Both the position numbers and the translations under genes were made by a program. The notes below the pieces were generated by a model, which did no database searches, had not been told where the DNA came from, and saw only the letters and a list, made by a program, of their open reading frames with translations. Of a stretch of 32,000 nucleotides of DNA, positions 391 through 32,000 are shown piece after piece. Where the stretch lies: positions 18,085 to 50,084 of the forward strand of contig JAZDKC010000033.1 in NCBI GenBank assembly GCA_043803465.1. The letters are read 5' to 3'. Numbering within the stretch: position 1 is the stretch's first letter; every line of letters starts with the position of its first letter. This DNA is from Candidatus Micrarchaeota archaeon (GTDB lineage: Archaea > Micrarchaeota > Micrarchaeia > Norongarragalinales > SBBD01).

Positions 391-873
391 GTGAAATCCA
401 AATCCCCATTCAAAATTAGGTTATCTGTCGAGGAACTGGAATTGAGCGCGGAGGTCACCAATGTCTCGAAAGTCGAGCAGTATTTCCTTGAAAATCAGCT
501 GTTGCAGCCTTCCTTGCTGAAGCTTTCCGATGCATTGGGAAAGCAGGTGAAGTTCAACGACCTAAGGCCTGAAATTTCAATAAATTGGCTCAAGCCAAGG
601 GATGAGTACAAAAAATTGAAACCCGGCGAGAGCAGGATATTCCACAAATTGCTTCTTTCAAAAAACGAATCGTCATCATATCATGTGAACTGGTACCCTT
701 TTGATGCCAATTTGGCGCCCGGCACCTACCGCGGGATGGTCGAATGGTCGAGCAAGGCGGATCGATGGGAGGAGTTCGACACGCATAATGAGATGCAGCG
801 GATCAATGGCAAGATGAAGGGAGTGTGGCTGGGAAAGGTTTGCTCGAATAGCGCGGAACTGGTTCTTGAGTAA
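391..873 (+). CDS. hypothetical protein (160 aa, soluble, no recognisable motif)
   Basis: Clean ORF with a GTG start at 391 and TAA at 871-873. No family signature recognised by eye. Confidence 0.5.
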   Translation: MKSKSPFKIRLSVEELELSAEVTNVSKVEQYFLENQLLQPSLLKLSDALGKQVKFNDLRPEISINWLKPRDEYKKLKPGESRIFHKLLLSKNESSSYHVNWYPFDANLAPGTYRGMVEWSSKADRWEEFDTHNEMQRINGKMKGVWLGKVCSNSAELVLE

Positions 874-4462: not shown

Positions 4463-5739
4463 GGTTACTTGACATCGCAGCGATGTCGCTCGCTAATATG
4501 CGCGGAAGGAAGCTGCGCTCCTGGCTAACCGTGCTCGGGATAGTGATAGCAGTCGCTTCGATCATCATCCTGCTATCATTGGCATATGGCGTTGAACAGC
4601 AGGTTTCTTCAAGGCTGAATCAGCTCGGGAACGATGTCATACAGATCACTCCGGGGAATTCGCAGGCATCCCGGGGAGGCGGAGGCGGCGTGGCAATCCG
4701 CGGCATGGGCGGCGGGGACCAGCCAGGAGGGGGTTTCGGAGGCGGTTTTGCAGGAGGGGGCGAATTCCGGTTCGGCGGCAATGAAGGGCAGCTAACCTTT
4801 ACGGACGCGGAACGCCTGAAGATTGTCGAAGGCGTCCTGGCAGTTGACCCGCGGCTGACCGGCAGGCTCAGATCGATGTTCAAGGGCTATAATGCAACCC
4901 TCAGCATAATCGGGGTGGACCCGTCGGGGTTCAAGGCGATAAACACGGCGCCGATGTACCAGGGAAAGATGCTCAATGAAAACGACAAATATTCAGTGGT
5001 TTTGGGCTATAATATTTATGCCCGCACCTTCGGCGGCCTGCCCATGATCAACAGGCAAATAAAAATCGGGGATTCATACTATACTGTAATTGGCATCATC
5101 AACTCGAGCTCCGGCTCCTTCATTACATCCGATTCTGCCGTTTACATGAACATCGATATTGCAAAGAGGGTGTTGAATGAGAGCACGAACCTGAATCAAA
5201 TCTACATTAAAGTGAGGCCTGGCCAGAACACGGATACTGTTGCCGCAAGGCTTGAAAATAAGCTGGTGGAATTGCACCGCGTAACCGCTGCCAGGGAGGA
5301 TTTCACCATCACAACCGCATCATTCATACAATCGACCGCATCGGCTGTAACTGCGACGCTGACCTTGTTCCTTGCAGGCATTGCCGCCATATCGCTGCTT
5401 GTCGGCGCAATAGGGGTTGCCAATACGATGTTCATGAGCGTCCTTGAGCGCACGAGGGAGATCGGCGTCCTTAAGGCGTTGGGAATGAAGGATGCGGAAA
5501 TCACAGCAGAATTCCTGATAGAGGCCGGATTGATCGGTGCTGCGGGCGGCATTTTCGGGATACTCTTGAGCCTGGGCGCGATTTTCGTGCTTTCGCTTTT
5601 CAATGTGGCTGCAATCGCAACGCCGGAGCTCCTTCTGGGCTCCTTGCTTTTTTCAAGCATAATAGGGGTAGTTTCCGGAGTTCTGCCTGCAAGGAATGCG
5701 GCGCATCTGCAGCCGGTGGAGGCATTAAGGTATGAGTAA
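4459..5739 (+). CDS. ABC transporter permease, FtsX/MacB family, with a glycine-rich insertion in the extracytoplasmic domain
   Basis: ATGA overlap with the upstream gene. N-terminal TM (LRSWLTVLGIVIAVASIIILLSL), a large external domain, and a C-terminal FtsX module (LAGIAAISLLVGAIGVANTMFMSVLERTREIGVLKALG...PARNAAHLQPVEALRYE). Confidence 0.9.
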   Translation: MRLLDIAAMSLANMRGRKLRSWLTVLGIVIAVASIIILLSLAYGVEQQVSSRLNQLGNDVIQITPGNSQASRGGGGGVAIRGMGGGDQPGGGFGGGFAGGGEFRFGGNEGQLTFTDAERLKIVEGVLAVDPRLTGRLRSMFKGYNATLSIIGVDPSGFKAINTAPMYQGKMLNENDKYSVVLGYNIYARTFGGLPMINRQIKIGDSYYTVIGIINSSSGSFITSDSAVYMNIDIAKRVLNESTNLNQIYIKVRPGQNTDTVAARLENKLVELHRVTAAREDFTITTASFIQSTASAVTATLTLFLAGIAAISLLVGAIGVANTMFMSVLERTREIGVLKALGMKDAEITAEFLIEAGLIGAAGGIFGILLSLGAIFVLSLFNVAAIATPELLLGSLLFSSIIGVVSGVLPARNAAHLQPVEALRYE

Positions 5740-8430: not shown

Positions 8431-11400
8431 TCAATTTTTAAGCTCCTGCCTGATCTGCCGGATTATGCCTTCCGAGTCCGACCACCAATCGCGGGAACCC
8501 ACCCGGAAAACCTTCCAGCCGCGGGATTCGAGCAGATTCTGGCGATAGACATCCCTTTCTTTCGCATCCAATAGGCCCGAATAGTTGAATTTGTCGATCT
8601 CAATCCCCAATGCATATCGATGAGGATCCTCCTTATCGAGAATTGCCAAATCAAGCGCATAGTTGGAATAGCCGACCTCCCTTCTTACGGTCAGCCCTAT
8701 TTTCGAGAGCTGCTCAAATAGCTCGTTTGCAATTTCGCTTATTTGCGCGGCTTGCATTGAGGGGGCTTTTTCATAAGCGGGCCCCCCGCCAAGCGATTTA
8801 AGGATGCCGTTGATTTCTCCCGTATTGTTCTCAGAAACCGCTTTGGCGTATTCCAGGTATTTCCTCAAATATTTTCCGCCGATATTGCTCTCTTCGGTGA
8901 TGCGGAGCTGAAGTGGGTCAATTGAACTAACCACGACGATTTTCTCCCGTGCCCTGGAAACTGCAACATTGAGCCTATGCTCCCCGCCCTCCATTGAAAG
9001 CGTGCCGAATTGGGTGAGCACCTTCCCATCCTCAATTGAAGGCGCATAGCCGATGGAAAAGATTATCATGTCCCGCTCATCCCCCTGCACATTCTCTATG
9101 TTTTTCACAAACAGCGATTGCAATTCCTCGTTCTCCACCCTTTCAAGCTCCCGTTTGTAATGCTGGTAGAATTTGTAGTCGGAAAGCGCCTTTTTCTCTA
9201 GCAGGTTCTCAATAAGGTCGCGTTGTGCGGAGTTGAAGGTGACGACGCCGATCGAAGGCGGATGCGGTTTAACGATCGTTGTTGCGATCAATTCCACGAC
9301 TTTTTCCGCTTCCAAACGGTTTTTCCTCTTTTCCCACAGGCCATGCACTTTGACATAGTCGATTGCGGGCGATTTCCTATGCAAATCAGGAGTGGTTGTT
9401 GTTTGGATTTTTCCGGAATAGAATGCAAAATTTGAAAATGCGATGAGTTCTTCGCGCTTCGATCGATAATGCCAATTCAGCAGCAATTCGGGGTATCTCC
9501 GTTTTGCAAGCTGCAGGAAGCTCTTGATCCCCGAAATCTCCTTCAATTCGGATGTTGAAAGCGAATCATCCTCTTCCTCCGAATCCTGCGCATCGAGATG
9601 GGATGAGAATAGGTCAAATGGGGGGAGCTGCTTTTCATCCCCGGCAACGCAAACCGATTTGGAGCGGTAAAGCGCCGGGATCGCATGCTCGAGTGTGCAC
9701 TGCGACGCCTCATCAAAAATTACCGCATCGAACATCCCTTTTTCCAGGGGGAAAATCGCGGAAACGGTTTCAGGGGAGCACAGCCAGACGGGAAAGACAT
9801 CCATCATGCCTTTCTCCGAAAATTCACGGAGCATTTTCCTCAGGGACCAGGGGTGTTTTGTTTTTTCGGATTGGAATTTTATCTCCTTAAGGTTCGAATA
9901 CCGTTGCGAGGAGAGGAATTCGTGCCACCTTCTTTTGGTTTCCTGGCGCGATTTCAATTTCCGCTTTTCAAGGAGTGAGCGGACTTCGGCCCTATATCGC
10001 CCATAAGTTGCGCCATCCAATTTTTTCAGCACCGGAAGTGCGCTTTCCGCATCGCCAATCCATTTCGAATAGAAGGAATGCCGGATTATCGCGATTGTTT
10101 GCGGCACGTTCTTTTCGCGCGAGAGCGTTTGCGCTGCAATTGACAGCAGCTTCCGTTCATTGTCGTTCAAATCATCCACCATCCTCTGGTAAACAGCCCC
10201 CTTTTGCTTATTCCGAAGTGAATCTTGGAGTTGGATAAGCAGATGCGCTGCGTCCTCCGAGCCTTCGGATGCGAATGAAACCAATTCGGATGAGACATCA
10301 TGATCCAAAATTCCCGCAAGCTCTTTTGCCTCCTTCTCGATTATGCCCATAAGCTTGTTGTATTCGGACATTTTTTCGATTGATTTCAATGACTTGGAGG
10401 TAAACCGGATATTTTCGCCGGCAAGCTCGCGAATCAGGTATTCGGCCGGCAATTTTGACTCCTTATTCGCAATCCGCACGCTTTCAAGGAACCTGTTGGT
10501 TTTGCGCCATTCGCCGTTGGCAAATTTCAGGAATGATTTTGAATTGTCGGGGTGCTTGCGGATTTGGTGCTCCAGCTCGAGGGATTTGGGATACGAATAG
10601 CCCTGGGATTTTAATGAGAGCGCGTGCCATTCATTGGAATTGAATATTTCCGATAGGGATTCGATCAGGCGCAGAAGTTCGCGCAAATGGATTTCCGCTT
10701 GGCGCATCTTTTCCTCAGAAAGCGACGAAAGGGCGCCATTTTGGAGCGATTTGAATGCGCCGTTGCCGTCCTTGCGCAAAAGCGGCAATATGTCGGAAAT
10801 CCGTTCCATCGCATCGGAAAATTCCTGGAAGCTGAATTTTTCCTCCAGTGCATCCAATTCTTCTGTCCTAAGCAAAGCGTCCTTGTCAAGGAGATATAGC
10901 TGCCTTAGGGTCGAACCGCATTTGAGCCGTTTATTTACCCCCAGATGGTATTCGAGAATTTGCAGGAGGATTTCTTCTGAGCGCGTTCCCTTGTCATCCA
11001 CGCTGACCTCCGGAAGCTCCTCCATGGAATTGAAATCGTCAATGTCCTTCGATGCCTTCATGAAAATGTGGGAGCGATCCTTGTTGTAGTCGTGCACAAG
11101 CGCAACCATGTCCCCCAAGCCTATGGCTGCCAGGCGGTGGTACACAACGTCCAATGCCGCACGCTTTTCGCACACCAGGAGGACCTTTTTTCCTTTTGCA
11201 ACGGAATCCGCAATAATGTTCACAATGAGCTGGGATTTTCCGGTGCCCGGAGGCCCGTGAACAGCGATGCCGCCCAATTTTTCCAATGAAAGCAGTGCGC
11301 GTTCCTGCGAACCATCGACATCGGTGACAAAAAATGCCTTCTTCCCGTGGTCTTCGGGCCGCAGCCATTCGGCCTTGTCAGAAGCCTCGCCGTTGAAGAA

Positions 11401-12228
11401 ATCAAATAGCGCGCCTTCCTTTGGGGGATTCTTGATCAGTTCCTCATAATCCGCAAGGAGGGTGGATGATGTTTGCGGGAAAAGGCCCAAAATCGCGTGT
11501 TTCCTGATTTTTATATTCGTGGATTTGATGCGGTTGGATTTTGGCTCATACTGCATTACCGCCTCCTCAAGCGCATCCTTATTTTCGAACTTCATCCCGA
11601 GCTCTTCGCATTTTGCAATTGAGCTGAATAAATAGCCATCCTTGCCCTCATCAATCTCAAAATCATAATTTGGATCAAATTTGACGCGGTTGAATTTCTG
11701 GTATGCGATGATGAATGTCTTGTTCAGGATGGGCTCGCGCTCCTCGTCTGGTATCGCAGTAAATTCCAATTTTTTGTAATCCTTCTTGATCAGTACTGGA
11801 AACAGCACCAGGGGGCATTTGTAATGCGTGCCATCCCCGAATTCTCCTTCAACAAAGGGGTATCCGATGTAAACATCATAATTTCCCGTTTCCTTTTCTA
11901 TGAAATCCGCCTCCCGCTGCAGATGCGAGAGCCTGTAGGATGCGGTCATGTCGTCCTCATTTGGCGTTATCACCCTTACCAGGCGCAGGGGTTTTCGGGC
12001 AACAATTTTATCCGTGAGCCTTTGCGCCTCTGCCTTGCTCTCATTGAACAATTCGTAAAGGTCGAAGTGCAGCCGCATGCTCAGGCGTGAAAGGTGCAGG
12101 GAGCGGTTTGTCTTGCTCACATCGGTGAGCTGGTCGCGCAATACCTCGAGCACTTTGGGCACGGATACCTTCTGGTTGGCCGAGGGGTCCGACAATGCGC
12201 CCATTAGTTTGGTGTATTCGCTATCCAT
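8431..12228 (-). CDS. large SF1 (Upf1/DNA2-like, AAA_11/AAA_12) helicase with a DUF4011-like N-terminus and a C-terminal Vsr/DUF559-like (PD-(D/E)xK) endonuclease domain
   Basis: Walker A GPPGTGKSQ; Walker B/motif II VIFDEASQC; VAGDEKQLPP; NWHYRSKREELIAFSNFAFYSGK; VQGDERDMIIFS; RLNVAVSRAREKIVVVSS. C-terminus YALDLAILDKEDPHRYALGIEIDKFNY...RGWKVFRVGSRDWW resembles DUF559/REase_MTES_1575. A helical insertion of about 430 aa lies between Walker A and B. Confidence 0.9.
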   Translation of the reverse strand: MDSEYTKLMGALSDPSANQKVSVPKVLEVLRDQLTDVSKTNRSLHLSRLSMRLHFDLYELFNESKAEAQRLTDKIVARKPLRLVRVITPNEDDMTASYRLSHLQREADFIEKETGNYDVYIGYPFVEGEFGDGTHYKCPLVLFPVLIKKDYKKLEFTAIPDEEREPILNKTFIIAYQKFNRVKFDPNYDFEIDEGKDGYLFSSIAKCEELGMKFENKDALEEAVMQYEPKSNRIKSTNIKIRKHAILGLFPQTSSTLLADYEELIKNPPKEGALFDFFNGEASDKAEWLRPEDHGKKAFFVTDVDGSQERALLSLEKLGGIAVHGPPGTGKSQLIVNIIADSVAKGKKVLLVCEKRAALDVVYHRLAAIGLGDMVALVHDYNKDRSHIFMKASKDIDDFNSMEELPEVSVDDKGTRSEEILLQILEYHLGVNKRLKCGSTLRQLYLLDKDALLRTEELDALEEKFSFQEFSDAMERISDILPLLRKDGNGAFKSLQNGALSSLSEEKMRQAEIHLRELLRLIESLSEIFNSNEWHALSLKSQGYSYPKSLELEHQIRKHPDNSKSFLKFANGEWRKTNRFLESVRIANKESKLPAEYLIRELAGENIRFTSKSLKSIEKMSEYNKLMGIIEKEAKELAGILDHDVSSELVSFASEGSEDAAHLLIQLQDSLRNKQKGAVYQRMVDDLNDNERKLLSIAAQTLSREKNVPQTIAIIRHSFYSKWIGDAESALPVLKKLDGATYGRYRAEVRSLLEKRKLKSRQETKRRWHEFLSSQRYSNLKEIKFQSEKTKHPWSLRKMLREFSEKGMMDVFPVWLCSPETVSAIFPLEKGMFDAVIFDEASQCTLEHAIPALYRSKSVCVAGDEKQLPPFDLFSSHLDAQDSEEEDDSLSTSELKEISGIKSFLQLAKRRYPELLLNWHYRSKREELIAFSNFAFYSGKIQTTTTPDLHRKSPAIDYVKVHGLWEKRKNRLEAEKVVELIATTIVKPHPPSIGVVTFNSAQRDLIENLLEKKALSDYKFYQHYKRELERVENEELQSLFVKNIENVQGDERDMIIFSIGYAPSIEDGKVLTQFGTLSMEGGEHRLNVAVSRAREKIVVVSSIDPLQLRITEESNIGGKYLRKYLEYAKAVSENNTGEINGILKSLGGGPAYEKAPSMQAAQISEIANELFEQLSKIGLTVRREVGYSNYALDLAILDKEDPHRYALGIEIDKFNYSGLLDAKERDVYRQNLLESRGWKVFRVGSRDWWSDSEGIIRQIRQELKN

Positions 12229-16175: not shown

Positions 16176-17882
16176 ATGCCCGGCTCCAAGTACCCATATA
16201 TGCCGAAGAACGAGCTTGACCGCGAAATCTCAAAAGCCAGGGGCCTTTATTTAAATAACCTGAAACTTTCTCAGGGGAAATCCGTTAAGGCCCTTTTCGA
16301 TAGAATCGAGACCGGCACCAGAATGATGCACCAATACGGTATTGCGGACCGTGATGCCCTTCATTCCATGCTGTACCGGGCTTTGCCATCTAGAATCGTA
16401 AAGACCCTGCCCCTCGAGGCGCCTGCGGTAGATTTGATCAATAATTATTCTGCCTGGGTCACACGACCCCATGTAAAACGCGAGGTTGGAAATATTGAGG
16501 ACTATATTGAAAGCGTTCGGAATAGCCATTTGGGTATCCTATCCCTGAGGATGTTCGATAGATTCGCCAAATTGGACCAGATACGCAGGAATTCGTCAAA
16601 ACCGATACACACGCTTCCAGAGGCAGCGAACATAGGGAAGGAAATATTGAACACTCATTCGCTAATAGCTCGTTTTCTGGGTTATGAAAACCTCCGGGAG
16701 GATATGACAAACCTCGCTTTGGAAGCGACCGCACCCAAATTATTATCCGGAATCAACAATATTGTCGACAATGAGTTCAAGAAAAACAAGGACGGGGTAA
16801 ACGCCACATTCGCCATATTGCATAAGTTCGATCCATCCGGGAGCTTGGCATCATCGTTCATCAGGAAAAAAAGTGCGGCAAGCGTATTGGAAAAGTTGGT
16901 AAGGAGGCTGACGGAAAAAATTTCCGAATTGGACAAGAAAGCCAATGAACTCGAAGAAGAGAGAAAAATAGGCACTCGCCCGAAACAGCAAATAGCGAAT
17001 AATCTAAGGGACGTTAGAAACTTAAAACGGAAACTTGAGGAAAGGAGGCGTAGCATCCCATCCTTGCGAAGCCTTCCGGAATGGGCCGAAAAAATGATCC
17101 GGGATCCCGAATCCTTTTTTGATCTCGTGGCTATACGGTTTGTTTTAAATTCAAAAAAGAATGATGATTGTTTCAAATTAGCAGACGTAATAAAGGACAA
17201 CTTAGGGGAAAAGAACGTTAGAATCCAACACGACTATATAAGCAACCCCAAACCCAACAACTATCAGTCGCTCCATTTGAAGGTAAAATTGCCGGGGGGT
17301 GCCGTGGAATTCCAAATTAGGACTTTCGATATGGATCGCAGGGCAAGTGAGGGCTCCGAACAGATGCATGCGATATATAAAAGCAAATCGAAAAATTTGC
17401 CGCCTTCATTGATTGCTTCGTTGCTGTTTTTAAGGAAGGCGCTTAAGGAACGCAAGCCCCTCGATCACGCAGCCCAATTCTACTATGAATCCGAACTTGG
17501 GGTTCATGATGCGAACATAGGCAGGAAGTTGTACATTCCTGAGGGCGCCACCTATGCGGATTATCTTGTCAAACACCATTTGCTCCCCAATGTGAAAAGG
17601 ATCAGAACGGTCTCCGTTCAGAGAATTGGACCGGCGGATAGGTCGGAGGAGCTAGTAGTTCCCATTTACAGCAGGGTGCAAGATGGCGACATACTCCTTG
17701 GACCCCGTGAAATCGGGTATACGGACAAACCTGAAATCAGATTATTGGCATTTTCAAGTCTTCCGAGCACACATGCGGCGATAACAGAGGCCCATCCCCA
17801 CTTGAACAAATTTGAACTTAGGACCATACTATACGAATACCGGCGGAAATTCAAAAGAACACATGCGGATTTTCCACTTTGA
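16176..17882 (+). CDS. RelA/SpoT-homologue (RSH) nucleotidyltransferase: alarmone-synthetase fold with a TGS-like C-terminal domain and an unassigned N-terminal domain
   Basis: RxKxxxSxxxK (R230-K240: RKKSAASVLEK). D..AIR (FFDLVAIRFVL, D316). HDYISNPKPNNYQSLHLKV. EFQIRTFDMDRRASEGSEQMHAIYKS. Then LYIPEGATYADYLVKHH...VQDGDILL resembling a TGS domain. No HD hydrolase doublet was seen in residues 1-225. Confidence 0.8.
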   Translation: MPGSKYPYMPKNELDREISKARGLYLNNLKLSQGKSVKALFDRIETGTRMMHQYGIADRDALHSMLYRALPSRIVKTLPLEAPAVDLINNYSAWVTRPHVKREVGNIEDYIESVRNSHLGILSLRMFDRFAKLDQIRRNSSKPIHTLPEAANIGKEILNTHSLIARFLGYENLREDMTNLALEATAPKLLSGINNIVDNEFKKNKDGVNATFAILHKFDPSGSLASSFIRKKSAASVLEKLVRRLTEKISELDKKANELEEERKIGTRPKQQIANNLRDVRNLKRKLEERRRSIPSLRSLPEWAEKMIRDPESFFDLVAIRFVLNSKKNDDCFKLADVIKDNLGEKNVRIQHDYISNPKPNNYQSLHLKVKLPGGAVEFQIRTFDMDRRASEGSEQMHAIYKSKSKNLPPSLIASLLFLRKALKERKPLDHAAQFYYESELGVHDANIGRKLYIPEGATYADYLVKHHLLPNVKRIRTVSVQRIGPADRSEELVVPIYSRVQDGDILLGPREIGYTDKPEIRLLAFSSLPSTHAAITEAHPHLNKFELRTILYEYRRKFKRTHADFPL

Positions 17883-17891
17883 AAATTATTT

Positions 17892-18024
17892 CGTTTGCCT
17901 CTACCCCCCTATTCCGAATCAGATCTTGAAAACATAATCTACAACACCTATATGGGGGCACATCCCCCCTACTCGTGTTGCCTCTACCCCCCTATTCCGA
18001 ATCAGATTTTGAACACGTAGTCCA
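17892..18024 (-). repeat. direct duplication (period 83 bp) of the GGR gene 3' end plus its 3' flank
   Basis: 17896-17924 equals 17979-18007 exactly (29 nt: last codon, TGA and 23 nt of flank). The preceding codons differ only at third positions: copy in gene GAC TAC GTG TTC AAA ATC TGA, downstream copy GAT TAT GTT TTC AAG ATC TGA. Both read DYVFKI*. Confidence 0.9.
17943..17993 (-). repeat. two-tier hairpin element plus C-rich tail, copy 1 (homologous to 28675-28724)
   Basis: The plus strand reads aacac-cta-ta(t)ggggg-cacatc-ccccc-ta-ctc-gtgtt, then gcctctacccccct. It aligns at about 80% identity with the hydrogenase-locus element. Confidence 0.8.
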
Positions 18025-19177
18025 TATCCCCGTATTTTTCAAGTAATTTGCCCATTCCGATCCGACGGCCGACCCCGACCCCCAGTTCTGAGAGCCAATT
18101 CGGCATCAGGCGGTAAAGCCGGTGGAGCAGGTAATGCAATTTGAGGGTTTCGCCGTGCTGGAGCTGCCATGCTGATTCATAATCGAGTTCCTTCCCTTCA
18201 ATTAAATATTCGGCTGTCCCCTTGGCAGCCACTTTTGCGCATTTGGCGCCGAAATTCACCCCCCCTCCGCTCGTTGCCTTCACCTGTCCGGCTGCATCCC
18301 CAACGAGGAGAGCATAGGAGTTGCCGAATCGCTTCTGGGTGTGCTTCCGATACCTCAAGGGAATCATGTGATGAAACTCAAATGTTTTATGGCTGCCTTT
18401 AATGATATTAGCTAGGTAAGGGTTCTCGAGTGCGGCCCTTTTGGCATTTTCAATTTTATTGATTTCCGTGGTTGCAACACCGATCCGGATCCTCTCGTCC
18501 GAAATGGGAATCGTCCAAGCAAAAAAATTCCGGTAATGCGACTGGTCCAGGATCAGGTCTACAATATCCTTTTCGGGCACATCCGCCTTCGAATATTCGG
18601 CCTGGTAGCAAATTACGCAATCAGACAGCTTGATGGGGGGGAATCCGAGCTTTCTGGCCGTGAGGGAGGCGTTCCCGTCGCAGCCTATGATGACGTTTGA
18701 TGAAAAAGCGCCGTCATCGGTTGTTTGCACGTTGATTTTCTGGTTTACTTCGAACCCCCTGACGCGGGTGTTCAAATGCAGGTTTGCGCCCGCAGCAACA
18801 GCCTCATCCGCAGCCCTTTCATCAAAGGATTGGCGCGGAAGCACAACCGCTTGGACCGCGGATGATTTGACCTTCAATTCCTCCTTGCCTGCAATGATCC
18901 GGGCACCCCTGATCTCATTCAAAATCAGGTCCGCATAATTGACTCCGGTAAAATCCATCCCGTGCTTGGAAAATATGCCCCCGCACTTGCCGAACTTGCC
19001 TACCCTTGAATCCTCTTCCAGCAGGTCGACCTCTATCCCCCTCTTGACCAGCTCTTTAGCTGTAATCGAGCCTACTGCGCTTGCGCCTATTACGATTGCA
19101 TGTTTTTCCATCAAAATACCCAAATTGCGCGTTATATTGTGTTTGAGCCCCCGTTGCCCCGCTTTTAATACTGCCAC
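18002..19177 (-). CDS. geranylgeranyl reductase family FAD-dependent oxidoreductase (digeranylgeranylglycerophospholipid reductase-like)
   Basis: N-terminal dinucleotide fold HAIVIGASAVGSITAKELVKRGIEVDLLEE. GCDG. The GGR-typical LVGDAAGQVKATSGGGV. The real start is probably the ATG at 19111 (MEKHAIVIG...); the track start at 19177 is a GTG. Confidence 0.85.
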   Translation of the reverse strand: MAVLKAGQRGLKHNITRNLGILMEKHAIVIGASAVGSITAKELVKRGIEVDLLEEDSRVGKFGKCGGIFSKHGMDFTGVNYADLILNEIRGARIIAGKEELKVKSSAVQAVVLPRQSFDERAADEAVAAGANLHLNTRVRGFEVNQKINVQTTDDGAFSSNVIIGCDGNASLTARKLGFPPIKLSDCVICYQAEYSKADVPEKDIVDLILDQSHYRNFFAWTIPISDERIRIGVATTEINKIENAKRAALENPYLANIIKGSHKTFEFHHMIPLRYRKHTQKRFGNSYALLVGDAAGQVKATSGGGVNFGAKCAKVAAKGTAEYLIEGKELDYESAWQLQHGETLKLHYLLHRLYRLMPNWLSELGVGVGRRIGMGKLLEKYGDMDYVFKI

Positions 19178-25916: not shown

Positions 25917-25988
25917 TTAGCAGCAGCCGCAGCATCCGGAGTGCTTTTTGCCTTTCTTTCCCTTCTTCGCAACAGCTTTTTTCTTCAT
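25917..25988 (-). CDS. small ORF (23 aa) MKKKAVAKKGKKGKKHSGCCGCC: Lys-rich with a C-terminal CCGCC cluster
   Basis: Not in the track, which has a length cut-off. GAGGTG (26000-25995) lies exactly 6 nt before the ATG (25988-25986). TAA at 25919-25917. A T-rich run follows on the minus strand. The upstream duplicated gene end shows the ORF once sat 18 nt after the FNR-like gene stop. Confidence 0.45.
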   Translation of the reverse strand: MKKKAVAKKGKKGKKHSGCCGCC

Positions 25989-26001: not shown

Positions 26002-26138
26002 TTTATTCGCCACGGCTCAATATGCATCATTTCCGGCTTGAAACCTTACGTCTGCGACGGGGGATAAACCCCCTCGACCAGACTGGTCGTCCCCTTTATT
26101 CACCACGGCTCAATATGCATCATTTCCGGCTTGAAACC
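26002..26138 (-). repeat. direct duplication (period 93 bp) of the FNR-like gene 3' end, with hairpin-containing spacer
   Basis: 26010-26045 equals 26103-26138 exactly (36 nt). The stop TGA (26100-26102, plus-strand tca) is CGA in the downstream copy (26007-26009, plus-strand tcg). The spacer 26046-26094 carries GGGGG-ataaa-CCCCC (26059-26073) and the palindrome cgaccag-a-ctggtcg (26075-26089). Confidence 0.9.
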
Positions 26139-27326: not shown

Positions 27327-28604
27327 TTACTTCCACTTGACTTTCAAGAAATGCGTCGCGCAGCTCATGCAGGGGTCGTATGCGCGGATCAGCTTCTCGA
27401 TCTCGAATTCGAGCTCCTCCTTTGGCTTGTGGAGGTTCTCCTCCACCAGCTTCTTGATGTCGAAGCCCATGTTCACCTGGTTCTGCGCAGTCGGAATTAC
27501 GAGCTCGACCTCCTTGATCTTGCCGTATTCATCCACCTCGACGTGATAAAACAGGGTGCCGCGGGGCGCTTCAATGGCAGCAACTCCGATGCCCTGCTGC
27601 GGCTTCACTTGCACTGGCGTTTCTTGTTTGAAATCCGTTGTCTCAAGCAACTCGACTGCATGGTCAATACTATGCAATGTTTCAATTGTCTGAGCGAGAT
27701 TGTTCTTGTAAATATCGTTCGTAGGGAAAACGGAAATGAAACTTGAGGCATCCCTTTTCGTATCCTTGTGGAGCGCATCCTTTTTGAGGTTCATCCGTGG
27801 AAGCGAGCCCACCATGTATTCCTTCCCCCTGAACTGGAATCCAACGGAAGTGGAGTACGGAATCACAACCCTCTGCAAATGCCATAAATAATGCGATTTG
27901 GACACCGGAATGCCCTCGGAGTTGATTATCTCGTCGCCCAAATAGCTGAAATCCTTGTTACCGGAGCAAACATACCTCGTATCCCGCTTGAATGTGAAGT
28001 CGCAATCCTTGTAGATTTGCATCAAATCAAAAAGCGGCTCCCTTGCTGCCTTTAATTCGGCAATAACTTGTTTTGTTTTTTCCTTGCCTGGAATTTGCGC
28101 GTGCCCGCCAACAATTGGAAAGGTCGCATGAATTGATTTTCCCGCAACAAGCTTGCTCAAATTGTTGCCAGCCGCCTTAACCTGGAATGCCTGGTCCACC
28201 AGCTCATGATGGTCGTCAACGAATTCAAGAATTGAGTCCTTCCGAAACACATCCGGAAGCGAAAAAAGGTACAGGTGCATGGCATGATCCCGGACATACA
28301 TGCCGTGCGCAGTAAGCTTCCGGAGGATGCGGGTTTGATCCGAAACCTCCACCTTCAATGCGTTTTCAACAGCCTCTGTGCAGCAAAGGAGGTGGGCGAT
28401 GCTGCAAGTGCCGCAAATGCGCGAGACTATCTGGGGGACATTCAATGCGGGCTTGCCCCGGACAGCCTGTGCGTAAAAACGTTTTTGCTCGGTGATTTTG
28501 AGTTCGACATCCTGGACTTCATCGCCCCTGACCTTCAGGCTTAGGGACGCATGGCCCTCTATTTTGCTTATTGCCTCCAAATCAATGTCGAAGTCTTGAT
28601 GCAT
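27327..28604 (-). CDS. [NiFe]-hydrogenase large (catalytic) subunit, group 3-like
   Basis: N-terminal KIEGH and RICGTCSIAH (RxCGxCxxxH). C-terminal DPCMSCATH followed by a short cleavable tail FLKVKWK. ATG at 28604 (MHQDFDIDLEAISKIEGH). The track's 25-codon N-terminal extension runs through the duplicated region and is probably not translated. Confidence 0.92.
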   Translation of the reverse strand: MHQDFDIDLEAISKIEGHASLSLKVRGDEVQDVELKITEQKRFYAQAVRGKPALNVPQIVSRICGTCSIAHLLCCTEAVENALKVEVSDQTRILRKLTAHGMYVRDHAMHLYLFSLPDVFRKDSILEFVDDHHELVDQAFQVKAAGNNLSKLVAGKSIHATFPIVGGHAQIPGKEKTKQVIAELKAAREPLFDLMQIYKDCDFTFKRDTRYVCSGNKDFSYLGDEIINSEGIPVSKSHYLWHLQRVVIPYSTSVGFQFRGKEYMVGSLPRMNLKKDALHKDTKRDASSFISVFPTNDIYKNNLAQTIETLHSIDHAVELLETTDFKQETPVQVKPQQGIGVAAIEAPRGTLFYHVEVDEYGKIKEVELVIPTAQNQVNMGFDIKKLVEENLHKPKEELEFEIEKLIRAYDPCMSCATHFLKVKWK

Positions 28605-28608
28605 GGAA

Positions 28609-28737
28609 TCACGCTTGCGGTTTAACCCCAAACTCCGCCAAATATTTGTCGAGTACTTGTAAAAATTTCGCCTTGACACCTCTAGGGAGGATATCCTCCC
28701 TACGCGTGTCGCCCCTACCCTCCTTAATTTGATTCAT
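28609..28737 (-). CDS. 42-codon ORF created by the duplication: MNQIKEGRGDTRREDILPRGVKAKFLQVLDKYLAEFGVKPQA (new gene or pseudogene remnant of the small-subunit C-terminus)
   Basis: The ATG overlaps the small-subunit TAA as TAATG (28739-28735). The frame is open to the TGA at 28611-28609, which sits 4 nt before the large-subunit ATG. The last 20 codons re-encode the small-subunit tail. Confidence 0.3.
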   Translation of the reverse strand: MNQIKEGRGDTRREDILPRGVKAKFLQVLDKYLAEFGVKPQA

Positions 28738-28792
28738 TATTTCACACCGAATTCCACCAAATACTTGTCGAGTACTTGTAAAAATTTCGCCT
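28621..28792 (-). repeat. direct duplication (period 119 bp) of the hydrogenase small-subunit 3' end
   Basis: 28646-28673 equals 28765-28792 exactly (28 nt) and similarity continues to the stop. The 17 shared codons show 5 synonymous third-position differences and 1 replacement (V to A). Confidence 0.9.
28675..28724 (-). repeat. two-tier hairpin element plus C-rich tail, copy 2 (homologous to 17943-17993)
   Basis: gacac-ctc-tagggaggat|atcctcccta-cgc-gtgtc. This is a perfect 20-bp palindrome (28683-28702) inside 5-bp outer arms with a 3x3 internal loop, followed by gcccctaccctcct. Confidence 0.85.
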
Positions 28793-29216
28793 CATCCAGG
28801 GGGCAGCCCGGAACCATGTCCTCAACAGTTATTATTTGCGGAATTGAAAGCACTTTATCAAGCTGGTGGAATTTATCCACTAAAAATTGGATTTCCTTCC
28901 TGGTTTCCTCGTTGAAGAAGTTTCGCTGCCCTGCGGGAAGGCCAGTGCATGCGCAGCTTCCTATTGCCACCACTTTTTTTGAATTCGCCCGTATTTCAAG
29001 GACCTTCTGCCTGTCCTTTTCCGATGAGACCGCACCCTCTATGAACGCGACATCGATGTCCTTCAATTCGTTCTTCGTCTTCAGGATCCTTGCGTACTTG
29101 AAATCGATCTGCTGCACCCATTCCTTGTAGTGGTCATTCATCATCTCAACAAAAATTATGGAGGAATCCTCGCAGCAGCTGAACGAGAAAAGGCCTACCT
29201 TCAATTTATTCCCCAT
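28737..29216 (-). CDS. [NiFe]-hydrogenase small subunit (short, NuoB-like, proximal [4Fe-4S] only)
   Basis: The four cluster cysteines sit in the NuoB/HoxY pattern: FSCCEDS, GSCACTG and VPGCPL. The protein is 159 aa. Confidence 0.85.
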   Translation of the reverse strand: MGNKLKVGLFSFSCCEDSSIIFVEMMNDHYKEWVQQIDFKYARILKTKNELKDIDVAFIEGAVSSEKDRQKVLEIRANSKKVVAIGSCACTGLPAGQRNFFNEETRKEIQFLVDKFHQLDKVLSIPQIITVEDMVPGCPLDEAKFLQVLDKYLVEFGVK

Positions 29217-31009: not shown

Positions 31010-31103
31010 GGACTTCCTGAATGCTGTGCGCCCTCCAATTCGCGGGTTAATGCTACAACTGTCTTGAGGTTTCCTCCGGCCCTACGGGTTTATTGGAAAA
31101 AGC

Positions 31104-32000
31104 CTACGGCCCCTTCCTTTTCTTCCGCTTGCCTTTCATGAACTTTGCGTATGCTACGTAGCCCACGACTATGAGCACGGCGACGAGCAATATCCAGAAC
31201 GTGTTATCCAATTTGGATGCACGCATCCTGCTCCTGACCTTCACAAGCAGCTCGTTCGTCCTTGCCCTCGCATCCTCAATGACCGATCTTGCATTGCTAT
31301 CCTGCTCCTTTTCCAATAGGTCGATTGACTGCTCGACCATATTCTCGATTTCTGTTGTGTCCTCTCCGGACTGCTTGATCTCGTCGATTTGCGGCTCTAT
31401 CTCGTTCACCACGGAAAGCACCGCAAAACCTATTGGGCCAAGCGAGCCTCTCTTCAATTTCCTCAGGGTCTTGAACTGATATTGCGCTGAGGTAGTGCAT
31501 AGGCCGTTCGCGCAACTCTTCACGTAATACTGATAAACTGTATTTGGAAGGAGCGAACTAAGCGATAATCCGTGTGAAAGCTGAAGTGAGGCATCGTATT
31601 TTTCGAGAGTCATCGTTGTTTTCCCATATTTTGCGTAGGAATCGGAAGGTATGTCGGCGATCCAGGTGATTACTGCCGATGTCTGCGTTATGCTCGTTGC
31701 TTTCACCTGGGTGATTATCGGCGCGTTGTAAGCGGGGCCGACGGAAGCGGATGGAGATGGAATAATTGTCGATGTGGGAGTGAGGGTGTAAGTAATCGTA
31801 ACCGTCGGGGTCGAGGTAATTGTGGGGGTCGGAGTCGGCGTCTGGGTGGGTGTTGCGGAAGGCGTCGGAGTCGGCGTCTGGGTGGGTGTTGCGGAAGGCG
31901 TCGGAGTCGGTGTAGGCGTCGGCGTAAGGGTTATTGTGGGGCTGGGCGTAGGCGTGATCGTAGCAGTAGGGCTCGGCGAAGGCCAGGGGGTCGGCGAAAC
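31104..32000 (-). CDS. surface protein, partial (5' end beyond window): Pro/Thr-rich linker, FN3-like domain, coiled segment, C-terminal TM anchor
   Basis: The frame stays open upstream of the track's GTG (31706) to the window edge, reading ...TPTPTPSATPTQTPTPTPSATPTQTPTPTPTITSTPTVTI.... The FN3-like block is ITQTSAVITWIADIPSDSYAKYGKT...LSSLLPNTVYQYYVKS. The C-terminal anchor is FWILLVAVLIVVGYVAYA plus KFMKGKRKKRKGP. Confidence 0.7.
   Translation of the reverse strand, partial: VSPTPWPSPSPTATITPTPSPTITLTPTPTPTPTPSATPTQTPTPTPSATPTQTPTPTPTITSTPTVTITYTLTPTSTIIPSPSASVGPAYNAPIITQVKATSITQTSAVITWIADIPSDSYAKYGKTTMTLEKYDASLQLSHGLSLSSLLPNTVYQYYVKSCANGLCTTSAQYQFKTLRKLKRGSLGPIGFAVLSVVNEIEPQIDEIKQSGEDTTEIENMVEQSIDLLEKEQDSNARSVIEDARARTNELLVKVRSRMRASKLDNTFWILLVAVLIVVGYVAYAKFMKGKRKKRKGP
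31831..31910 (-). repeat. 36-bp in-frame tandem repeat (2.2 copies) encoding TPTPTPSATPTQ
   Basis: ggagtcggcgtctgggtgggtgttgcggaaggcgtc at 31831-31866 is repeated exactly at 31867-31902, with a partial third copy at 31903-31910. Confidence 0.85.

Follow-up and report, generated by a model that had tools for sequence, protein, structure and literature searches.

The 32,000-nucleotide (nt) stretch of Candidatus Micrarchaeota DNA analysed here (contig JAZDKC010000033.1; hereafter, the window) carries, between the small- and large-subunit genes of a [NiFe]-hydrogenase, a short repeat, here termed E, in which a G-rich box and a two-tier hairpin stand after the end of the small-subunit gene and before a second, displaced copy of that end. 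Both window loci at which E was found are described here along the minus strand, the sense strand for the genes beside them. At the hydrogenase locus (28609–28792), the small-subunit gene (28737–29216) closes with its working tail, T1 (28740–28792), which encodes AKFLQVLDKYLVEFGVK and directly meets the TAA (28737–28739) that now ends the gene. This stop codon and the AT-rich 5′ arm of E, shortened here to 16 bases (tgaatcaaattaagga), together span 28721–28739 and are followed by the G-box GGGTAGGGGC (28711–28720) and by the hairpin (28675–28710), which reads GACAC-GCG-TAGGGAGG-ATAT-CCTCCCTA-GAG-GTGTC. The 3′ end of the hairpin, at plus-strand coordinate 28675, forms a sharp junction with the duplicated fragment: one base further on begins T2 (28609–28673), a displaced tail that encodes AKFLQVLDKYLAEFGVKPQA and a stop codon and lies 4 nt from the ATG (28604–28602) of the large-subunit gene. 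T1 and T2 form a direct repeat (28740–28792 versus 28621–28673) of 89% identity and differ by five synonymous changes and one non-synonymous change. T2 extends three codons (PQA) beyond the point where T1 meets its stop, and small-subunit homologues end in ...EFEVIPKA or ...EFEIIPKA, resembling the displaced tail. The small-subunit protein has a counterpart of 100% identity in a Candidatus Micrarchaeota metagenome-assembled genome. Since the genes on the two sides encode the small (Pfam Oxidored_q6) and the large (NiFeSe) subunit, this copy of E lies inside an operon. Its hairpin folds at −23.4 kcal/mol (z = −4.16; none of 200 shuffles as stable), and the covariance model R1, built from 40 E copies, scores it at 75.5 bits (28673–28744, minus strand). 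Relic tails of this kind can mislead gene callers into extended or false open reading frames (ORFs): the mechanically called large-subunit ORF of 450 aa (27327–28679, minus strand) runs upstream through T2 to a GTG inside the hairpin, whereas the real start is the ATG at 28604–28602, giving 425 aa as in the related sequence L001 (sequences compared with the window are designated by such L numbers).

The other window locus lies at the end of a FAD-dependent, geranylgeranyl-reductase-like (GGR-like) gene, whose working tail, encoding DYVFKI and a stop codon (18002–18022, minus strand), is followed by the short arm ttcggaataggg (17990–18001; tail and arm together, 17990–18022) and by the core of E (17943–17989), consisting of the G-box (17980–17989) and a hairpin of the form AACAC...GTGTT (17943–17979). 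A second unit of tail, arm and truncated core comes next (17895–17939): the displaced tail (17919–17939) again encodes DYVFKI and a stop, with four synonymous differences, and after the arm (17907–17918) the core is cut short after 12 nt, GGGTAGAGGCAA (17895–17906). The direct repeat at this locus (17978–18031 versus 17895–17948) has 85% identity. The complete hairpin folds at −23.5 kcal/mol (z = −4.18; again none of 200 shuffles as stable), and R1 assigns 67.8 bits to the complete element (17941–18013, minus strand) and a weak 17.4 bits to the truncated one (17880–17930, minus strand). Converging on the GGR-like gene is a gene for a 568-aa protein with a RelA/SpoT nucleotidyltransferase domain (16176–17882, plus strand), whose stop codon is separated from the truncated E copy by 13 nt.

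The initial annotation of the window, made from its sequence alone, had described these two copies as hairpins conserved between unrelated loci, beside the stops of minus-strand genes, the hydrogenase copy being followed by a duplicated gene tail. Both were recovered where it had located them, each between a gene stop on the minus strand and a tail duplication. They share the 27-mer GGTAGRGGCRACACGNGTAGGGRGGAT (minus strand), which occurs twice in the window and in none of 100 shuffles, and each has the 5-bp outer stem, the 3×3 internal loop and the G/C inner stem proposed for it (z of about −4.2 in both cases). Three features go beyond that description: the exact start of the displaced copy at the stem base, the coding-like divergence of the two tails and the second, truncated element at 17895–17906.

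Further copies were sought with the pattern GGGTAGNGGCNACACGNGTAGGG, a 23-mer with 20 fixed bases derived from the two window copies, in one genome per species of 185,579 species (596 Gb, both strands). There were 38 matches in 36 loci of at least nine genomes, where by our own arithmetic about one would be expected by chance. All 38 lie in metagenome-assembled genomes (MAGs) labelled Micrarchaeota, Norongarragalinales or unclassified archaea, and a single Hainich groundwater genome carries approximately 15 of the matches. Viral contigs gave no match to the pattern, while metagenome contigs returned mainly the same Hainich H43 contigs plus a few new ones. A covariance-model scan, the check proposed by the initial annotation, uncovered additional copies: R1 finds about 54 distinct ones in 308 kb of fetched DNA, diverged and truncated copies included. 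Gene contexts, roughly classified, are convergent in 16 cases, divergent in 12, co-directional with E in sense in nine and co-directional with E in antisense in one, and about a third of the copies run antisense to the gene that has its end duplicated. A full-text literature search returned no description of such an element in Micrarchaeota, and broader searches gave no pertinent paper among the titles listed.

Across the family, E consists, from 5′ to 3′, of an optional 20-nt AT-rich arm (ATTCGCAAAnnTAAnTAAAG), the G-box (GGGTAGRGGC) and a two-tier hairpin with the consensus RACAC-GNG-TAGGGG-loop-CCCCTA-GAG-GTGTY. It measures 46–70 nt, begins with ATTCGCA..., ends with ...GGTGTY and contains no ORF. 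The full arm fills the gap between the upstream copy of the duplicated sequence and the core at no fewer than 12 unrelated loci and is almost never found without the core, the remaining E copies having a shorter arm or none. In the 40-copy alignment, the G-box columns are invariant or nearly so; the tetranucleotide G42-T43-A44-G45, which continues into the inner stem, is present in all 40 copies.

The alignment also bears out the proposal that the hairpin is under selection for structure. Standard pairs occupy 94.6% of the cells in the hairpin, compared with only 43–57% in a control in which the partner column was slid, and 51 double-sided changes were observed versus 14.9 in shuffles, a count that none of 500 shuffles attained. 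The difference between gacac/gtgtc and aacac/gtgtt in the outer stems of the two window copies, which had been read as covariation, is a true two-sided change: this pair is G-C in 32 copies, A-U in seven and unpaired in one, with no one-sided changes. The top three pairs of the inner stem vary freely yet stay paired, many inner stems being perfect palindromes, and the terminal loop is very variable, reaching about 70 nt in the L008 copy. At pair 43:65, at the foot of the inner stem, 13 copies have U·G, which occurs on the sense strand only; as the opposite strand would there hold a C·A mismatch, the constraint falls on the sense strand, whether it acts as RNA or as single-stranded DNA. The hairpin of E is maintained by compensatory changes. 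None of the models in Rfam 15 matches the window at gathering score, and at permissive thresholds the best sub-threshold hits, at about 16 bits, are to unrelated miRNA models.

In two copies from the same genome (L018 2816–2933 and L030 7590–7696), GGCG and ACACG are set apart by an internal insert, homologous in both and about 50 nt long; it holds a second GTAGAGGC and marks a longer sub-family of E. The arm occurs once as a motif without a core (L024 4866–4885). At another site (L032 3205–3232), the arm (ATTCGCAAATCTAATTA) can be aligned to a native gene tail of a species without the element at that place (L030 at approximately 1600–1625), the gene being, at a guess, deoxyhypusine-synthase-like; the two tails end in YSQI and YSSLI, each followed by a stop codon. 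By this alignment, the arm may have originated as a fragment of that gene's end and travelled with the family, or the relation may be the other way round.

The second conspicuous property of E is the duplication of its flank, which is both sharp and one-sided. In about 30 of the 40 copies (approximately 75%), the sequence beginning 0–5 nt past GGTGTY repeats a stretch upstream of the element. The duplicated stretch is 14–99 nt long (about 115 nt in L024) and 75–100% identical between copies; its upstream version ends 0–54 nt before the core, and the displaced version is joined exactly where the outer stem ends on its 3′ side. The duplicate generally copies whatever lies 5′ of E, a point absent from the initial annotation. 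Most often this is the 3′ tail of a protein gene, usually with its stop codon, but it can equally be the 5′ head of a gene on the opposite strand (L007, L017, L021, L026, L031 and L052) or the end of a tRNA gene (L008, L013, L015, L023, L002/L036 and L011). For tails, heads and tRNA ends alike, the intact gene lies 5′ of E, in about 32 cases, against a single case (L011) in which it lies 3′. We considered and rejected two simple accounts of the displaced copies. Read-through translation of the displaced tail does not apply, because the spacings of the copies (119, 83, 93 and 76 nt) keep no common reading frame; replication slippage was dismissed since, on our reading, no microhomology exists between the 3′ end of E and the bases before the upstream copy.

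That E moves is apparent from sites that lack it. In L001, a relative whose hydrogenase small subunit is 84% identical, both the junction of the small- and large-subunit genes and the end of the FAD/NAD-binding-subunit gene (considered below) have a single tail and no element, and for five further E loci (L019, L003, L033, L035 and L032) the orthologous site of another species has one gene end and no E; the initial annotation had proposed such a comparison. At one locus (L019, position 566), E is inserted without a duplication, replacing 11 nt. Identical loop variants recur at different loci of one genome, one shared by L017 and L034 and another by L011, L014 and L028. We also observed an E copy nested in the hairpin of another (L036, approximately 5040–5130). 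In the MAG PPR_0039, E together with 48 adjacent nt interrupts the T-loop of a tRNA-Asn(GTT) gene (L005, approximately 418–520, plus strand), which ARAGORN detects only once 94 nt are removed, the tRNA then being canonical. The ends of this insert can pair (GACACCUCCAGG with CCUGGAGGU), and no clear bulge-helix-bulge was located in its fold; judging from the sequence, the gene may be either a pseudogene or a gene with an unusual intron.

The displaced copies do not look like fragments that decayed where they lie. Between the members of 23 curated in-frame pairs of working and relic copies, 92 codon changes are synonymous versus 24 non-synonymous, and codon position 3 accounts for 104 of the 138 nucleotide differences. 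The observed synonymous fraction of 0.79 was not attained in any of 400 simulations, the simulated values being 0.15 with both copies drifting and 0.54 with a drifting relic and a working copy that accepts synonymous changes only. The differences include AGG versus CGC arginine codons (L006) as well as CTC versus TTA leucine codons and TAG versus TAA stops (L001). Where an orthologue allowed changes to be polarised (the hydrogenase tail, L019 and L035), those on the relic branch are all synonymous, though few (at least five, by our own reading). The synonymous excess means that the displaced fragments have not simply been decaying in place, and such coding-like divergence implies that the copies diverged mostly in different lineages, when each still belonged to a working gene. 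Gene conversion between the copies was discarded as a cause of this bias, because conversion would remove differences whether or not they are synonymous.

Units of gene end and E are in places reiterated. In L030, five tails encoding DYKxWVDxYLAKPLLKK and a stop codon are separated by four different E variants; the unit boundaries are common to the first four tails, and the distances between tails roughly track their order. Arrays of two or three units occur in L003, L022, L023, L028, L032 and L008 and at the GGR locus of the window. In the MAG H43-bin164_1 (L024 3940–5160), four hydrogenase large-subunit tails (ending in DPCMSCATHFLKVKWK and a stop) fall into two allele pairs and are separated by an E variant, by about 0.8 kb with two small overlapping ORFs, and by a full E. 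The two ORFs (92 and 88 aa) resemble a toxin–antitoxin pair in size and arrangement and have no Pfam match.

Mobility by a non-autonomous element was one of the explanations offered by the initial annotation, and it is the one that the dozens of copies at unrelated loci of at least 9–10 genomes, the empty orthologous sites and the identical sub-variants within one genome uphold. E is a mobile element of Micrarchaeia that is non-autonomous and depends on structure; it uses the 3′ base of its stem as a fixed joint, and its spread has been accompanied by the direct copying of DNA on its 5′ side; the comparisons show that the gene on this side stays whole and that the second copy is a relic. As to the mechanism, we prefer, with confidence that is about evenly balanced, a two-step scheme of flank copying over transposition with staggered cuts. 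E would first land in a very short intergenic spacer, insertion without duplication having been seen once; the 5′ flank and E would next pass as one unit, by copying, from an allele that has the element into homologous alleles, with or without it, of the same or a related lineage. On the 5′ side this transfer would be resolved by homology, and the hairpin base would be joined non-homologously to an upstream point in the recipient by a putative enzyme acting there, by cutting or joining, for which no gene was found in the window. Such a scheme would account for the displaced native gene end, the one-sidedness, the synonymous-type divergence (the two copies being a donor and a recipient allele) and the arrays of gene end and E; it would also account for native sequence resuming after the relic, as where T2 runs into PQA and a stop, an ending seen in homologues. 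A number of points weigh against it. It assumes DNA transfer between cells, and all sequences are MAG contigs from different species, with no strain-level pair of filled and empty sites among them. Comparison of both copies with orthologues from other species did not, on our reading of the alignments, mark one of them as consistently foreign, the species being too distant. Among the 25 families listed of the 36 PHROG families matched by 150 neighbouring ORFs, no partner enzyme was found. In L011, the intact tRNA gene lies 3′ of E, which is awkward for flank copying, and at seemingly new sites (L029, L015, L036, L022 and L011) identical duplications surround a single element, as would be expected of the direct product of a transposase with long staggered cuts. 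Cut-and-paste or copy-and-paste transposition by a trans-acting enzyme making long staggered cuts of variable length, with the copies as target-site duplications, is a real possibility, although to us a doubtful one. The two copies would then have diverged later, one copy and the gene next to it being overwritten through homologous recombination with diverged element-free alleles, and arrays would have formed by unequal crossing-over, which suits the identical unit boundaries of the first four L030 tails. L011 fits this scheme directly, and so do the duplicated sequences that abut a full-length E on both sides in L025, L026 and L024, the continuous range of identity between copies from 100% down to 75% and the loop variants shared by separate loci of one genome. 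Yet staggered cuts give no account of the bias of about 32:1 towards the end of the 5′-side gene, the ends of E (ATTCG... and ...GGTGTY) are not inverted repeats, and the 92:24 synonymous bias requires a second process. Moreover, we know of no prokaryotic transposase, the IS1634 group excepted, that makes duplications of 14 to more than 100 nt. Flank copying and staggered cuts may both operate.

Other readings do without mobility of this kind. E could be a module useful to its host (a stabiliser of mRNA 3′ ends, a protein-binding site or a promoter or insulator cassette) that selection retains and recombination spreads passively, in line with the strong conservation of structure, the restriction of U·G to the sense strand, the preference for sense over antisense orientation in co-directional gene pairs (nine versus one) and a TATA-like box that, on our own reading, lies between E and the tRNA at tRNA 5′ ends, about 27 nt upstream of the tRNA. 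We nonetheless find this improbable: orthologous sites in related species are empty, copies interrupt a tRNA T-loop, nest in one another and occur truncated, Rfam has no match, and passive recombination does not make copies at unrelated loci. A terminator module, also entertained by the initial annotation, had to be abandoned, as an intrinsic terminator is contradicted by the lack of a T-run after the hairpin on either strand of both window copies and by the position of the hydrogenase copy within an operon. Even less probable, in our view, is that E is a folded recombination site resembling attC and that units of gene end and E are cassettes moved by a tyrosine recombinase in the manner of integrons. 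The two-tier hairpin with its unpaired centre and highly variable terminal loop, the crossover-like junction at the hairpin 3′ end and the units in arrays all recall such sites; however, the outer stem (RACAC/GTGTY) lacks the GTTRRRY/RYYYAAC core, the symmetric 3×3 loop comes without extrahelical bases, neither the window nor the PHROG families listed for the neighbouring ORFs include an integrase, the copies are scattered beside housekeeping genes rather than gathered in one array by an attI site, and the would-be cassettes are gene fragments, not ORFs. The junction partners of E share no apparent secondary-site motif. Finally, every sequence examined comes from MAGs, which raises the question of chance or an assembly artefact; we regard this as practically negligible, given that the same architecture occurs in MAGs of several studies (judged by isolate and contig names), that the H43 contigs recur at equal lengths in the ENA primary assembly and in the GenBank MAG, that window shuffles gave no motif match and that covariation exceeded all 500 shuffles.

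Elsewhere in the window, two sites had been put forward as weaker members of the same family. The one at 26046–26094 (minus strand) lies between the working and the displaced tails of the FAD/NAD-binding-subunit gene, and part of the proposal stands: the insert has a two-tier G5/C5 fold. The tail next to it is duplicated with 98% identity (26095–26138, working, versus 26002–26045, displaced, minus strand), the only difference being CGA for the TGA stop. Membership in E by sequence does not stand, R1 fitting nothing beyond the GGGGG-loop-CCCCC part (6.6 bits); we thus treat the insert as analogous but non-homologous to E. In L001 (17301–17402), the GGR-like tail is likewise doubled (MDYVFKL versus MEHVFKL, each with a stop) around a different, non-E G5/C5 hairpin, to which R1 has no match beyond the G5-loop-C5 core; either the GGR-like gene end was struck independently in this relative or the L001 element has decayed, as far as the sequences suggest. 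BLAST searches with the 26046–26094 insert and with the L001 hairpin returned no further copies. The other proposed member, at 31063–31088, was dropped: it folds no better than shuffles (z = +0.96), has no R1 match and is not flanked by a duplication.

After the displaced FAD/NAD-binding tail comes a 23-codon ORF (25917–25988, minus strand) with a strong ribosome-binding site and an ATG, which is conserved between the window (MKKKAVAKKGKKGKKHSGCCGCC) and the relative (MKKKAAEKKQKKGKKHAGCCGCC; L001 13874–13945, plus strand), in each case followed by a stop, and looks like a lysine-rich microprotein with a cysteine tail. A Pfam search of 23 window ORFs found no transposase, integrase, Rep or reverse transcriptase. 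Besides the hydrogenase subunits, it identified the FAD/NAD-binding subunit and the FAD-dependent reductase, the rest being housekeeping, transport and defence-like genes. Among them is a 1265-aa protein (8431–12228, minus strand) with superfamily-1 helicase domains (AAA_11 and AAA_12), DUF4011 and a C-terminal MTES_1575 restriction-endonuclease-like domain, by its domains apparently a defence-like or DNA-repair nuclease-helicase. Near the window end, 31774–31955 consists of imperfect tandem repeats with 6-, 12-, 18- and 24-nt periodicity (GTCGGAGTCGGCGT...).

The genomes of DPANN archaea are tiny and densely packed with genes, and little is known of the mobile DNA in them. In this setting, E is abundant and structurally constrained, and it remodels gene ends, operon junctions and tRNA genes but does not destroy them; it may point to a new route by which DNA is moved and exchanged in small genomes, and it is useful as a lineage marker, with relic arrays as a possible record of past alleles. 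A bolder reading, which we think rather unlikely, makes E the cis site of a previously undescribed, hairpin-anchored and one-ended system of DNA mobilisation in DPANN archaea. In that case, an enzyme specific for the structure would nick or join DNA at the stem base, as at an oriT or a replication origin, and gene ends would be copied with the element from one Micrarchaeia lineage into another in a kind of homing without an element-encoded protein. If this were true, the arrays would hold dated fossils of earlier alleles.

Among known systems, the layout at E loci is matched by that of mobile endonuclease ORFs in fungal mitochondria. In Allomyces atp6 and in Glomus atp6, atp9, cox2 and nad3, the host gene acquires a foreign C-terminus, followed by the mobile ORF and the displaced native C-terminus, the tails being diverged in DNA and conserved in protein, which was interpreted as lateral acquisition (PMC3630166). 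The succession of gene, new tail, element and displaced native tail is the same; however, the fungal ORFs, about 1 kb in length, supply a homing endonuclease of their own, whereas E is also found at gene heads, at tRNA ends and in arrays. REP and REPIN sequences mobilised by RAYT proteins are similar to E in being short, GC-rich imperfect palindromes after a conserved GTAG, and in being non-coding, extragenic, multi-copy and lineage-specific. Unlike E, they are bacterial, have a single RAYT gene, typically form inverted doublets and do not duplicate their flanks; E, for its part, has long one-sided flank duplications, an extra G-box and outer stem and an archaeal host. Doublets with the spacing of REPINs were not observed among the E copies, nor was a RAYT-like gene in the fragments examined. 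MITEs (miniature inverted-repeat transposable elements), too, are small, non-autonomous, multi-copy and capable of forming hairpins, with direct repeats of the target on both sides. We rejected an assignment of E to this class, since its palindrome is internal and not a pair of terminal inverted repeats and its duplications vary from 14 to more than 100 nt instead of being fixed at 2–10 nt; E further differs from MITEs in its strong one-sidedness. A related insertion sequence (IS) was not found in the window or among the PHROG families listed for the 150 neighbouring ORFs.

Integron attC sites share with E a two-tier hairpin of conserved structure and variable sequence just 3′ of a coding sequence, with the junction at the hairpin 3′ end, and are set apart by their core-site consensus, extrahelical bases, integrase, attI site and ORF cassettes. 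The palindrome-associated IS200/IS605 elements and the IS91/ISCR elements resemble E in their asymmetric ends and in a hairpin at a defined end, and ISCR elements co-mobilise variable stretches of adjacent DNA. In contrast to E, these elements depend on HUH enzymes and go in beside a short specific target, leaving no duplication; the sequences examined showed no target motif and no HUH enzyme. The internal loop of E, being symmetric, is not the archaeal bulge-helix-bulge, in which two 3-nt bulges on opposite strands flank a 4-bp helix at exon–intron junctions. Retroposons of the short interspersed element (SINE) type, which move by target-primed reverse transcription, come close in their fixed 3′ end with a stem-loop, variable 5′ extent and duplications of variable length. 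No SINE-type element is to our knowledge present in prokaryotes, no reverse transcriptase was found in the fragments scanned, and about a third of E copies are antisense, unlike that class. We know of no described mobile-element family that leaves a second copy of a gene end after a hairpin repeat. E is best regarded as a new small non-autonomous repeat with an unusual, so far unexplained insertion signature, whose exact stem-base joint, long one-sided flank copies and coding-like relics fit no described transposition chemistry and point either to a new enzyme activity or to frequent allele exchange between lineages.

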